From Eledone cirrhosa (lineage: Eukaryota): a stretch of DNA of 64,000 bases. How positions within the stretch are numbered: position 1 is the stretch's first letter; each line of letters begins with the position of its first letter. Location of the stretch: NCBI GenBank assembly GCA_964016885.1, contig OZ024745.1, positions 128,464,001-128,528,000 on the forward strand. Direction: 5' to 3'. A program made the position numbers and the translations under genes. Positions 4,288 through 64,000 of this stretch are shown here, one piece after another. The notes beneath the pieces are model-generated. The model searched no databases. It saw nothing but the letters and a program-made list of their open reading frames with translations, and was not told the DNA's origin.

Positions 4288-4498
4288 TTATTAAAATAAC
4301 AGATTAAAGTTTAAGCAAAGTATCACTGCTTTCACCCTTAACAGAAGATCCCGTTAAGGGTGAAAGCAGTTATTCTTTGCTTAAACTTTAATCTGTAATT
4401 TTAATAAATATTTGCTCTACGGTTCTTATCTATTTAATATATATTTATCCTTATCGAGCTCTCTTTGGATTTTAGTTTTCAAATTTATTATTATTACT
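4288..4498. mobile_element. Fold-back element in (TA)n (family C)
   Basis: ~55-bp arms (TTAAAATAACAGATTAAAGTTTAAGCAAAG... and its reverse complement) plus an ~90-bp extension; copies at 37683-37888 and 57308-57538. Confidence 0.85.
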
Positions 4499-5231
4499 AT
4501 ATATATATATGTGTGTGTGTGTATGTATATATAAATATATGTATATGTATATATATATAGATATAGATATATATACATATATATATACATATATATATAT
4601 ATATATACATACATATATATATATATATATATATATATATATATATATATATATATATATATATATATATATATATATATATATATATATATATATATAC
4701 ATATTTATACATACATATATACATATATATACATATATGTGCAATATATGTGCATACTTATATATGTATATATATAGATATACATTGTATATATATATAC
4801 ATATATATCTATATATATATATCTATATGTTTATATATATATATGTATAAATATATATATATATATACATATATCTATATATATATATCTATATGTGTAT
4901 ATATATATATATATATATATATATATATATATATATATATATATATATATATATATATATATATATATATATATATGTATATATATGTATACATTTATAT
5001 ATATATATACACACACATATATATATATATACACACATATATATATATATATATATATATATATATATATATATATATATATATATATATATATATATAT
5101 ATATATATATATATATTAATAAGAGGAATTCCAACTTTGTCTGATTTACTCGTTTTATTTACAATCCTTTAAAATTTATAATGGTATTATAATGAAATAT
5201 TATGATAGAATATTAAATTCTAAGTGTTAAT

Positions 5232-5270
5232 TGAACATGTACTTTCATGCTTTCGCAATCTTCAGGTTCA
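5232..5270 (-). ncRNA. Hammerhead ribozyme in the Neptune-like pLTR
   Basis: Reverse complement TGAAC-CTGAAGA-T-TGC-GAAA-GCA-T-GAAA-GTAC-AT-GTTCA; stem I TGAAC/GTTCA; position 16.1 reads A rather than U, so possibly inactivated. Confidence 0.7.
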
Positions 5271-5652
5271 TAATATGTGGTGACACTCAAGTTTGCAATT
5301 TTCAACTGTAATAAGATGGGTAAATTTCCTACCTTTTATACATTATATACAGGGAAAAGTGGCTCCAGAATGCTAAGCCCTGCAAACTGTATTTCGACCA
5401 ATCAGTGTGTAGTTTCACTAAATTACTAAAGCTGATTGGTTTAAGCGTCACGGCTGGTTGAGCATGTCTAACGACCAATAATTAATCATATCCAAAGCAT
5501 CAATTGTTTTGCTAATTTTAGAAATGATGAAAATAGCATTTTCTATTAATCATCACCATCAACATCACTTTTATTATTATTATTATTGTTGTTGCTGTTG
5601 TTGTTAGTGGTCGTAGTCATAGTGGTAGTAGAAGTAATACCCCTAAGCGTTA

Positions 5653-6945
5653 TTATTGTTCATTTAGCTTGGGTTTGAATTTATCAATAAAATTCTTTTC
5701 TTTGATTTTTCTCTTGATTTCACTTGGGCTGTGTAATTTGTAGAATGGGAATATTATAAATATTCCCTGACCACATGTTGCTAGATGGTTACTTAGGGGT
5801 ATCTGACGGACATTTGGGTCTCTGATTTGTTGAGGGTGTACCCGTGCACGTTCCGATAGTGCATTTCCAGTTTGACCGACATATAGTTCTTCACAATTCG
5901 GGCATTTAATGCAGTAAATTAGATTTCTGCTTTTGCAGTTGATATTTGCATTTGGGAATATTTTTCCAGCTTTTGTTTTCATATATTGACCGGCGTGTAT
6001 GGATTGACATGTGCCGCATCGACTATCATTGCATTTAGATACAGTGAATGATTGGTCTTTGTTGTTAAGGTCAAACTTTGCTTTTGTTAGTAATTGCTTC
6101 AAATTTTTTGGCTGTCTTTTACTAAGAGTCAAAGATCGATCTGTGATTAAGCCTTTTAATTCATTACTTTGAGCAATGATCGGTAGGTTTGCTTTGGCAG
6201 TGTTGAAGATATTCTGGTGACATGGGTTGTGTGTCATTATAAATGGTATGACCAGTTCTTGGTTTCTTCTTCCTTGGGTTGTCCTAAGTTGTTGTATAGG
6301 TATTTTTATAGCCCGCTGTATGCCATTTTCTATAAGTAGAGATGGGTAATTTTGTTTGAGCAAAAATTCTCTTAGTTCTGTTAGGCGTTTGTACCTGGTA
6401 TTCGTATCTTCTACAATGGTACAAATTCTTCTGGCTAGGCAGTATGGGATGTTGCGTTTTGTATGAGGTGGATGGCACGACTTAAAATTCAGATATTGAT
6501 GGGTGTCTGTGTGTTTATAATATATATCCGTGGTAATGGTGGTGTCGTTTTTGATTATCATTATATCTAGGAATGGTAATTTGGTCCTACTCATCTCTTT
6601 TGTGAATTGGAGAGATGGGTGTAGGTTATTCAGGAGGATATTGAACTCATCCAGAGTATCTAGAGATTCTGTCCAGATGATGAAACAGTCGTCAAGGTAT
6701 CTCTTCCAAGATTTTTCAATGTACTTTCTAAAGTCAGTACTATATTTTTCCTCTATTTCTTGGTAGAGTTGTTGTTCTAAGTATCCCATTACAGGGTTCG
6801 CGTAAACGGGCGCAAACTTCGTTCCCATCGCTGTGCCTCTAATTTGGATGTAATTCTTTCTATTGAAGAAGAAAGTGTTGTTTTCCAGAATAAGTTTAAC
6901 TGCGTCTAATATAAATGGCGCTGTGAATCTGATGGGAATCACTAA
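5653..6945 (-). CDS. PLE reverse transcriptase (C-terminal half) + GIY-YIG endonuclease, N-terminally truncated
   Basis: Uninterrupted frame of ORF 5653..7059. The first ~38 aa of that ORF come from an adjacent SINE head and are not PLE sequence. Confidence 0.85.
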   Translation of the reverse strand, partial: LVIPIRFTAPFILDAVKLILENNTFFFNRKNYIQIRGTAMGTKFAPVYANPVMGYLEQQLYQEIEEKYSTDFRKYIEKSWKRYLDDCFIIWTESLDTLDEFNILLNNLHPSLQFTKEMSRTKLPFLDIMIIKNDTTITTDIYYKHTDTHQYLNFKSCHPPHTKRNIPYCLARRICTIVEDTNTRYKRLTELREFLLKQNYPSLLIENGIQRAIKIPIQQLRTTQGRRNQELVIPFIMTHNPCHQNIFNTAKANLPIIAQSNELKGLITDRSLTLSKRQPKNLKQLLTKAKFDLNNKDQSFTVSKCNDSRCGTCQSIHAGQYMKTKAGKIFPNANINCKSRNLIYCIKCPNCEELYVGQTGNALSERARVHPQQIRDPNVRQIPLSNHLATCGQGIFIIFPFYKLHSPSEIKRKIKEKNFIDKFKPKLNEQ

Positions 6946-7065
6946 CTCTATGCTGCAAAGCAAGGTGCGCGACTCCGATTCTGTACTGCCATCCCCTGCC
7001 CTACCGCCCCGCCCCATAATAATAATAATTTCTTTAATTGCTGAGAGGGCAACAGACATATAAAC

Positions 7066-62087: not shown

Positions 62088-62275
62088 TAATTGTTTCTAC
62101 GTTAGGCACAAGGCCAGCAAATTACCGAGTGCATTACTGGTACTTTATTTTATCGACCCCGTAAGGATGAAAGGCAAAGTTAACCTTGGCGGGATTTGAA
62201 CTCAGAAAGGCAAGGGCCGTAACTCTATACGTCAAAGCATGGCGTCCGACCCTCTACCGATACTGCCAATCCACC
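62088..62275 (-). mobile_element. Full-length dominant SINE
   Basis: All motifs present; flanked by AGACATAA direct repeats. Confidence 0.88.
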
Positions 62276-63161
62276 AGACATAATAAGTACTGAATATAAA
62301 ATAATAACTAAAAAATTGCAGTATTCTTCCAGCCACCCTCCAGGTCAAACCCCGAAACTATATTCAATATAAATTGTGAGTGTGTTTTTGTTTTTCTTTA
62401 ATTTTATCTATTTAACACGAAACAGCATTAAGTAGTATAAGCTGATTATATACTTATTTATAACTAGGACAGCAGAAAATAAATGCAAATTTTCAACATT
62501 TTTGTAGGTCCCTGGTGCAGTTGCACCATATGCAAATAAGACACTGGAGAAAATTCTTAAGTGTCTCCTTTGCCTAGATTTTCTACTCTCGGGTCATGAA
62601 TAATAGTGCTCCCACCCACACCCACTTATTATTTTTTTTAAAGATTTTTTTTCAAATCAACCCCGCTTTTATTCCCCCACCCCACCCCGTTTATTAAATT
62701 TTTGCTAATCTATCTCTGGCGAAATTTTATTTTAAGTGGTAGCATTCCTGCGACAATTAATTTTCTTTAGACCTTAAAAAACATTATACATTACAAACAA
62801 TCTACATTACTAGGAATCCTACCTAAGCACGTCACTCCGGATGCAAGAATGCTTACTTGCCTACCCTAGCCATTCTAATAAACACTTTCTTGTTTAACCT
62901 TCCAACACCCTCTTTCTTAATAAAAGACTAACGTCCGATATGTTGAGACATTCATTTTTCTTTTCCGTTTCCAACAAGTGTGAAACTAATAAAATTTTGT
63001 GAAATTGCCAATCTGTGTTTATCTTGTTTTGATCTTGAATTCTATATACACATACACATATACATAGATACATACATACATACATATATATATATATAGA
63101 GAGAGAGGGGGGGGGGGAGAAGAAGAAGAAGAAGAAGAAGAAGAAGAAGAAGAAGAAGAAG

Positions 63162-63407
63162 AAAGTGGAGGTGTTACATAGAAGATTGATTGCTCAATCC
63201 TGGTCACAAATGTTTCTCAGGCAGCTGGTTCATGATCTGGGATGGTACCCCAGACTAGACTCCGAGTCTGGCTGCTTCGTCCACAGATTTGATGTGATTT
63301 TTCTTGTGTTAACACTAGTCTGTGGTTCGGACAGACTTGGAATCTGGTCTGGGAAACATTTGTAACCAGGATTAAGCAATAAATCTCATATGTAACATCT
63401 CCACTTT
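63162..63407. mobile_element. Inverted-repeat element next to (GAA)n
   Basis: ~58-bp arms AAAGTGGAGGTGTTACATA..TCCTGGTCACAAATGTTTCTCAG / CTGGGAAACATTTGTAACCAGG..TATGTAACATCTCCACTTT. Confidence 0.75.
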
Positions 63408-63834
63408 GTTCTTATTGTATACACTCTACTCTGGGTCGAGTGCTGGCTTTGGTACTCTCATCAATTTTCTTCGGACTTACTGAACCTTCTGCATATAAAT
63501 TTATACCGACAGTCGAACGACTTTCATCAAATCGGACCCAGGAAATAATGTCTCCGTTGGTCTTTCCAATTGCTAATATTATCTATATGTCTATCTAACG
63601 TGAAATAAAATGTCTTGCTCAAGGACATAACGCATCGCTCGGTCCACGAATCAGTCTCACAACCTCACGATTGCTAATTCAATTCTCTAACCACTCAGCG
63701 ACGCGTCTTTATATATATGTATATATATATTTATATATATATATATGTGTGTGTGTGTGTGTGTGTGTGTGTGTGTGTGTGTGTGTGTGTGTGTGTGTGT
63801 GTGTCTGTGTGTGTGTGTGTGTGTGTGTGTGTAG

Positions 63835-64000
63835 ATCCCAAGTTAAATCGGGGGTAACCACAGTAGAATAAAGTACTTAATACATTGGATGAGGGGAAAA
63901 CATTAATATTAATATAGAAATGGCTCCTATGGGACTAGAACTGTTTCATTCGTATGAAATCATCAGGTGATGATTTCATACGAATAAAACATTTCTAGTC
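63835..64000. mobile_element. Fold-back element family G with HHR (runs off the window)
   Basis: Reverse complement of 63935-63966 reads CTGATGA-T-TTC-ATAC-GAA-T-GAAA-CAG-TT-CTAG; the sequence inverts immediately after the core. Confidence 0.8.

Follow-up and report, generated by a model that had tools for sequence, protein, structure and literature searches.

Fold-back islands in Eledone cirrhosa DNA are consistent with two-ended priming by truncated Penelope-like elements

What process leaves short inverted duplications, each with a different center, beside one microsatellite after another? This question is raised by a 64,000-nucleotide (nt) stretch of Eledone cirrhosa contig OZ024745.1 (here, the window), which has 36% GC and no N and of which about 17 kb is short tandem repeat. 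The original prediction described 16 such fold-back islands (families C, J, G, H, B, I, and L) and proposed that both ends of a cut in (TA)n had primed reverse transcription at two defined sites on the RNA of Penelope-like elements (PLEs). Our analysis leads to a similar answer: the islands probably represent independent, heavily 5′-truncated insertions of several PLE families, made by twin priming with a fixed internal start.

EACH ISLAND JOINS ONE LONG AND ONE SHORT ARM

Islands were located by comparing the window with itself and by a local inverted-repeat scan, and their ends were set by pairwise alignment. All 16 predicted islands were recovered at their positions, and self-comparison, inverted-repeat scan, and alignment agreed that every one is an inverted duplication. 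Four more (H5, M, N, and S) were added, giving 20 islands examined. They are listed here; "tail" is the overhang of the long arm, and HHR denotes a hammerhead ribozyme.

C1, 4288..4497: short arm left (4290-4337), long arm right with a tail of 87-90 nt; center continues the long arm.
C2, 37683..37888: short arm left, long arm right; 33-nt center continues the long arm.
C3, 57308..57538: short arm left, long arm right; 1-nt center; hammerhead-like fold with a CAGAAGA core at 57374 (-).
J1, 13614..13976: long arm left, short arm right; 57-nt center continues the long arm; HHR 13882 (+).
J2, 40123..40373: long arm left; 64-nt center with an HHR core at 40281 (+) continues the short arm.
J3, 43922..44331: long arm left; arms 98.5% alike; 58-nt center of ambiguous owner.
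J4, 60263..60614: long arm left; 141-nt center with HHR 60507 (+) continues the short arm; lies inside the central (TA)n of N.
G1, 11475..11664: long arm left with a tail of about 63 nt by (TG)n; short arm right; center with a variant HHR core, scoring marginally as short arm.
G2, 63835..64000: long arm left; HHR 63966 (-); right arm beyond the window end.
H1, 18555..18746: short arm left, long arm right; arms identical at 55/55; 6-nt loop as center, within a 12-bp hairpin.
H2, 31830..31987: long arm left, short arm right ending at (CA)n; 35-nt center continues the short arm.
Nest with H3, 59269..59506: a J5 arm (HHR 59277, +) running to the J short site, (TA)13, H3 (short arm from 59398), and a J-tail remnant.
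H5 (added), 26132..26234: 16-nt short arm extending further 5′ than the long arm.
B1, 16333..16760: short arm left, long arm right with a 37-nt tail; center with an HHR core at 16516 (+) continues the long arm.
I1, 11855..12336: long arm left with a 58-nt tail at (CT)n, short arm right; 124-nt center with HHR 12168 (-) continues the long arm.
I2, 26815..27490: two I units about 400 nt apart, HHR 27079 (-), inverted arm to a third position.
L1, 38768..38986: long arm left with a 95-nt tail, short arm right; polarity assigned by analogy.
M (added), 25866..26075: 81-nt arms, tail of about 40 nt on the left arm; putative PLE origin by analogy.
N (added), 60181..60795: 12-nt short arm left, long arm right with a hairpin tail to (CA)n; J4 nested inside.
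S (added), 63162..63490: short arm at (AGA)n, long arm with a tail carrying an RCTC/GAGY hairpin; long end uncertain.

Paired arms were 86 to 100% identical (differences of 0 to 14%) in 15 of the 16 predicted islands; the 80% of H3 was scored on its 15-nt central hairpin only. Both ends were intact in 13 of the 16 (C1-3, J1-4, G1, H1, H2, B1, I1, and L1). The other three could not be scored: the right arm of G2 (63835) is cut by the window end, H3 (59398) has lost its long arm and carries a J tail in its place, and I2 (27210) lies within a partial tandem (26815-27490), its right end falling about 70-90 nt short of the short site. A tail was present on exactly one arm in 13/13 intact predicted islands and, with H5, M, N, and S included, in 17/17 scorable ones. 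No symmetric island, whether long/long or short/short, occurred among the 20 examined.

Families C, J, G, and H served to test whether the outer ends recur; where a family has a single copy, "long" and "short" apply within that island only. The ends recurred as predicted, with tail overhangs of 90/90/90 nt in C, 92/89/88/87 nt in J, and 80/80 nt in H. The H long end was identical in four copies (H1, H2, H4, and H5), and that of G agreed within 2-3 nt in two copies. Every one of the 11 islands of the multicopy families (C1-3, J1-4, G1, H1, H2, and H5) occupied both recurring points, one with each end; were the site of each end chosen freely, this outcome would have a probability of at most 0.5^11, or about 5e-4. 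The predicted offset of 70-100 nt applied to C, J, H, and L1 (95 nt) and was too large for G1 (63 nt), I1 (58 nt), and B1 (37 nt). Ends generally lay at a microsatellite, except that the "long end" predicted at I27210 adjoins none, and the restriction to (TA)n had to be given up, as (CA)n and (CT)n flanks are also present.

THE CENTER CAN BELONG TO EITHER ARM

The centers proved as variable as predicted: gaps ranged from 1 to 209 nt, and no two copies shared a center. The example given for family J also stood, since 13815-13866 and 60447-60492 align as reverse complements only (score of 49 versus 18). Twelve island centers were aligned to other copies to find which arm each continues. The owner was the long arm in five (C1, C2, J1, B1, and I1) and the short arm in four (J2, J4, H2, and H5); G1 (short) and L1 (long) were marginal, and J3 was ambiguous. 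In at least four islands each arm holds element sequence that the other lacks. The short arm of J4, for instance, reaches further 5′ despite 98% arm identity. A fold-back copy cannot extend 5′ beyond its template, and the four centers owned by the short arm therefore do not fit simple self-priming.

Arms within an island were 91 to 100% alike in J, G, I, and H1, while likeness between copies was mostly 61 to 90%. The two arms of one island thus come from one subfamily in these cases.

HAMMERHEAD CORES AND CODING SEQUENCES LINK ISLANDS TO PENELOPE-LIKE ELEMENTS

Two open reading frames (ORFs) in the window identify PLEs, one of them collinear with an island family:

Truncated PLE, 5116..7071 (-): reverse transcriptase (RT) and C-terminal GIY-YIG (ORF 5656-7071), HHR core at 5265, 3′ end at (TA)n.
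Source-type copy of family B, 48128..49514 (-): 5′-truncated PLE ORF 48798-49514, HHR at 48356, tail to 48128.

ORF 5656-7071 (-) matched GIY-YIG with an E value of 7.7e-6 and RT weakly. A hammerhead core lies 390 nt downstream of it on the same strand, followed by the element end at (TA)n; this PLE could not be linked to any palindrome family. ORF 48798-49514 (-) corresponds to the thumb-linker-GIY-YIG part and had no Pfam match of its own. It shows 52% identity over 169 amino acids to an RT-bearing Octopus vulgaris protein, the only homologue among 560 longer candidates and in keeping with a probable octopus host, and its GIY-YIG region matches ORF 5656-7071 (E = 3e-7). This ORF runs into family B sequence with its core at 48356, and the short site of family B maps to about 48217-48222. 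Both ORFs carry, as judged by eye, a CX4CXXC-type linker that is Neptune-like, and both lack the N-terminal part responsible for the predicted dimer. When metagenomes were scanned with ORF 5656-7071, one locus with 84 nt of downstream sequence was returned; it was not used. The predicted link between families and a PLE could thus be drawn for B; within the 64-kb window no ORF linked to C, G, H, I, J, L, M, N, or S was found. A partial tandem of the pseudo-long terminal repeat (pLTR) kind is present in I2 and was not seen for the two ORF-bearing copies.

Hammerheads were sought with a descriptor that requires stems I, II, and III, against a null of 30 resamplings. It returned seven matches with a CTGANGA core, all in J, K, and I (null mean, 0.07; maximum, 1), and one with a CAGAAGA core in C, which is weak by itself (null maximum, 2). 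The cores of B and G were seen by eye. In family C the hammerhead-like fold (37729, 57374) has CAGAAGA in place of CTGANGA in every copy that reaches it. Among the matches listed by Rfam (150 of 283) there was no hammerhead, only low-complexity microRNA, and Rfam searches of two small windows gave nothing useful. No hammerhead core was visible in H, L, M, N, or S, for which shared anatomy suggests a PLE origin by analogy. In H1 and H3 the junctions (18598-18623 and 59440-59470) fall in an apparent hammerhead stem II, a native hairpin that gives 12 bp of homology; the central hairpin of H1 is likely this native stem.

Each of the cores at 5265 and 48356 shares its strand with the ORF of its element, and hammerhead polarity therefore equals sense. 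Read in this way, the island cores of J, I, and C point outward, which agrees with the predicted 5′-to-5′ join of the arms; for H and L this polarity may be assumed by analogy only.

STRAND-SWITCH JOINTS IN SEQUENCING READS OF FAMILY B

Four of 13 listed sequencing runs were placed on a family B reference (48115-49375, comprising the ORF and 3′ end): 13,679 contigs (X1), 649,659 raw reads (X11), and, from two further organisms, sets of 129 and 190 contigs. Five strand-switch joints occurred among the best-supported 15 of 145 joints (48188/48677, 48192/48685, 48298/48498, 48490/48934, and 48491/48999), each with 95-165 reads from one raw-read run and one start each. Read starts coincide with GCATGC at 48458 and with AATT at 48164, and with these as anchors, four of the five joints would read as head-to-head, the fifth being ambiguous. 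At 48188/48677 and 48192/48685 one arm lies wholly inside the tail, before the B short site, and the partner breaks about 490 nt upstream with no shared letters, which suggests the nonoverlapping geometry of classical twin priming. The possibility that the palindromes are assembly artefacts was thereby checked for the family B reference: raw reads do contain strand-switch joints, at other B positions. No piles at the two ends of B were visible among the best 24 of 1526 loose ends.

A TWIN-PRIMING ROUTE WITH A FIXED INTERNAL START

Two-ended priming at two RNA sites, as originally proposed, fits both the island anatomy and the published in vitro behavior of Poseidon, and we infer the following route. 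The GIY-YIG endonuclease would cut a microsatellite on both strands. Reverse transcription would then be primed by one DNA end at the distal RNA site of the family and by the other at an internal site, fixed and 37-95 nt farther upstream, so that the outer ends of an island would be the RT starts. The two cDNAs would terminate early, in many cases within or close to the hammerhead, and their 3′ ends would be joined, presumably by host end-joining. A single complex may use both sites, probably on one RNA and one per DNA end. Solo copies ending at either site (short in G3 and K1; long in H4, K2, B2, and B3) could be one-ended events. The solos and nested insertions concerned are these:

Solo B, 1361..1650 (-): long end present; no inverted partner found.
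Solo H4, 44383..44521 (+): long end.
Solo G3, 43844-43901: short end.
Family K, hammerhead solos at 25646-25808 (+) and 60862-61100 (-): similar 5′ starts.

G3 and H4 flank island J3, and insertions pile into each other's TA tracts (J4 in N, H3 at the J5 short site, and G3-J3-H4). One family K copy stops about 75 nt before the other, which corresponds to a short and a long site without inversion.

What marks the internal start may be a hairpin. In four families an RCTC...GAGY stem follows the short site at a distance of 2-7 nt on the 3′ side; it reads GCTC/GAGC in C and ACTC/GAGT in J, G, and H. Such a stem was present in 6 of the 11 family tails, whereas shuffling gave an expectation of 0.19. 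We infer that this hairpin positions the internal start. As for repeat-like matching to the target, ends do have 2-5 nt in common with the flank, and the short sites of G1, B1, and S are the best repeat-like tract of their arm, yet in 11 of 14 long arms equal or better tracts elsewhere were left unused.

A stricter form of the model, to which we give less than even credence, holds that a PLE RT-endonuclease dimer cuts both strands and obligately loads its active sites on either side of the conserved RNA hairpin, so that one long and one short end result whenever an insertion is two-ended and this is the normal integration route. If true, programmed twin priming would be a single rule behind the inverted pLTR and its one-sided tail and also behind MITE-like palindromes (MITE, miniature inverted-repeat transposable element), by the thousands, in microsatellite-rich genomes.

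Several observations weigh against the favored twin-priming account. In bulk, the in vitro start sites of Poseidon did not differ between strands (PMC11167929). I2, the B1 long arm, and the solo L2 end at third positions, and the B1 tail measures 37 nt versus about 88 nt in B2 and B3. The RCTC/GAGY stem is absent from B, I, L, M, and K; its pattern was picked after C, J, G, and H had been viewed, and families may share it by descent. Long-ended solos without a partner are common (B2, B3, H4, K2, and the PLE at 5116), and no empty site was seen. Likeness within islands says nothing for C, and for H2 and one arm of J1 a closer match lies outside the island. The partner ends of the read joints were unseen and could be long/long. 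If short arms equaled long arms in number, read depth should rise upstream of the short site, and no rise was found: in X1 the depth was 1.32 and 1.18 million over the B tail versus 0.59-0.90 million in the next four upstream bins, a comparison disturbed by the divergence of subfamilies at 48200-48260 and by the summing of word depth. Palindrome centers are subject to asymmetric deletion, a process able to reshape junctions. Such later deletion could mimic the pattern of center ownership and constitutes the main loophole.

COMPETING EXPLANATIONS

The strongest rival, which we judge rather unlikely, invokes self-priming: one strand folds back on itself at a palindrome into a hairpin, the endonuclease trims one arm at its own pLTR, with loss of the tail, and later deletions reshape the center. 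Self-priming was proposed in PMC3846280 and endonuclease resolution of the tail in PMC8557442. The scheme accounts for same-subfamily arms and for the strict asymmetry. The centers of H1 and H3 are a natural 12-bp hairpin, those of C3 and G2 measure 1-2 nt, and J5 is broken exactly at the short site, as if cut in DNA. It requires a second event every time, though, and a copied arm cannot pass the 5′ end of its template, yet the short arm does so in J2, J4, H2, and H5; the read joints, moreover, pair arms that break about 490 nt apart and share no letters.

Somewhat less probable still is dual priming in which two RNAs take part and the start site is chosen freely, the symmetric products being purged as perfect palindromes running into (TA)n. 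Dual priming has been described for L1 (PMC2837659; bioRxiv 10.1101/2024.12.14.628481), and free choice agrees with the lack of strand bias among start sites in vitro (PMC11167929) and with solos that end at either site (short G3 and K1; long H4, K2, and B2). Against it stand the count of 0 symmetric islands among 20 and the finding that no island joins two families, though more than 10 families share the window.

We find it very improbable that both arms were inserted at full length and that one of them lost its tail afterwards, through deletion or slippage between the flanking repeat and an internal patch resembling a microsatellite. The 2-5 nt shared between short sites and flank, and the short sites of G1, B1, and S that are the best tract of their arm, would be expected from such loss. 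However, C has a 9/10 TA tract 28 nt downstream that is unused in 3/3 copies, the H site scores 4/10 and is nevertheless used beside both (TA)n and (CA)n, and no intact long/long copy remains.

That the islands are MITEs or hairpin DNA transposons moving as units, or assembly fold-back artefacts, is scarcely credible: inverted repeats flanked by TA, with a real MITE-like element nearby at 24398-24598, would suit MITEs, but the islands have asymmetric termini (37-95 nt of overhang on one arm), no common centers, hammerhead cores, collinearity with a PLE 3′ end, arms that differ by 0 to 14%, and strand-switch joints in raw reads, so that the original denial of a MITE origin holds.

RELATION TO KNOWN SYSTEMS

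In vitro, Poseidon PAc cuts and extends both strands at AT-rich DNA, with two RT starts that form the borders of the tail, downstream of an uncleaved hammerhead, and with a predicted dimer (PMC11167929). The twin-priming route proposed for the window shares the cut and extension of both strands and the two starts bounding a tail. The Poseidon tail differs in measuring about 34 nt and having no homology to the target, whereas window ends share 2-5 nt with the flank; the window ORFs also differ in their CX4CXXC-type linker, Neptune-like by eye. The passages seen of PMC11167929 draw no tie to inverted copies or to site pairing on one target.

Endonuclease-positive PLEs include an inverted 5′-truncated copy with a tail of 30-40 bp often at one end, ascribed to endonuclease-mediated resolution, and target (TA)n; the origin of their tandem and inverted structures was called undefined (PMC8557442). 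Head-to-head inverted pLTRs with junction palindromes have been read as self-priming on an antisense template (PMC3846280), the only explicit proposal that we came across. The islands resemble the elements of these two papers in the head-to-head truncated copy, the one-end tail, the (TA)n preference, the apparent lack of a target site duplication (TSD; the flanks here are microsatellite), the partial tandems, and the junction palindromes. They differ in that arms are only 12-220 nt, so that the whole insert is a palindrome, that tails measure 37-95 nt rather than 30-40, and that asymmetry occurs in every scorable island instead of being "optional." In Schistosoma, minimal hammerheads lie in opposite-strand pairs 100-700 bp apart (PMC4209133); these are probably the same kind of truncated head-to-head PLE relic, with no ends or mechanism given in the passages seen. 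A PLE expansion is reported in O. vulgaris, in passages that contain no match for "palindrom" (PMC13282606).

In L1 twin or dual priming, too, two target ends prime on element RNA, and the parts are joined 5′ to 5′ with RT starts outside. The L1 internal site is variable, however, and the parts usually do not overlap; in the window each family has one fixed internal site, which the distal cDNA usually passes, with a palindrome as the outcome, and there is no poly(A). An L1-type pattern of nonoverlapping parts and a variable internal site was accordingly not what we found, nonoverlap being suggested only in the two read joints. MITEs are likewise short, of high copy number, and built of inverted repeats, and differ by symmetric terminal inverted repeats and a conserved body (PMC8969392).

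The inverted pLTR with a one-end tail and the in vitro two-strand extension from two start sites are thus already published. In the literature searched we did not find the strict pairing of one long with one short end, the argument against self-priming, or the RCTC/GAGY hairpin 3′ of the short site; nor was PLE twin priming with a fixed site found stated there, and older work could state it (Arkhipova 2006; Evgen'ev and Arkhipova 2005; Pyatkov 2004; Ostertag and Kazazian 2001). A single short read can span such a small insert with its two ends and its junction, so that the islands offer a countable genomic test, by the pairing of long with short ends and by the arm to which the center belongs, that links the 2024 biochemistry to insertions. 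In cephalopod genomes, MITE and microRNA callers that look for palindromes may mislabel PLE stumps.

OTHER REPEATS IN THE WINDOW

Three candidate islands were rejected. The hairpin at 51409-51461 is intrinsic to the repeat, being present in the copy at 54077-54165 as well, and the inverted pairs at 36337-37150 and 50596-50936 are SINE-like repeats (SINE, short interspersed nuclear element). Further inverted-repeat signals lie at 20825-21005 and, weakly, at 18182, 56991, and 62529.

Additional hammerhead-bearing sequences were observed as well. At 39404-39775 about 285 nt with a CTGACGA...GAAA core at 39588 are framed by a direct repeat whose copies match at 100% over 36 bp or more, either as a long TSD or as a pLTR-like structure. 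A hammerhead relic at 49684-50000 (+), with its core at 49896, lies between (TA)n runs and shows no inversion. The sequences at 9987-10069 and 47871-47952 are two copies of a small family that end alike at (TA)n; a GAAA core lies upstream in one of them, and they likely belong to another PLE family.

In contrast to the islands, the MITE-like element at 24398-24598, which we take to be hAT-like, has perfect 14-bp terminal inverted repeats, and its flanking 8-mers are alike at 6/8 positions. A further group (51070-51491, 53110-53520, 53890-54168, 30694-30865, and 17590-17875) combines an ACTCG...CGAG hairpin with GCAGCCA(T/C)CAT and (ATGT)n or (AT)n ends. Its members look like the 3′ ends of long interspersed nuclear elements, and 30694-30865 and 53348-53519 are 99% identical. 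Three ORFs, 51866-52903 (-), 44399-44956 (+), and 9316-9780 (-), resemble C-terminal parts of non-LTR retrotransposons (LTR, long terminal repeat); only the last has a weak zf-RVT match.

A SINE-like family of about 190 bp, partly in tandem, occupies 640-1070, 20064-20510, 28770-29183, and 36337-37380, with further copies at 47100-47298, 50520-50713, 56113-56320, and 62087-62286. The window also contains a 48-bp minisatellite of 23.7 copies with 97% matches (2079-3213) and a 2-kb array derived from (ACC)n (41185-43237).

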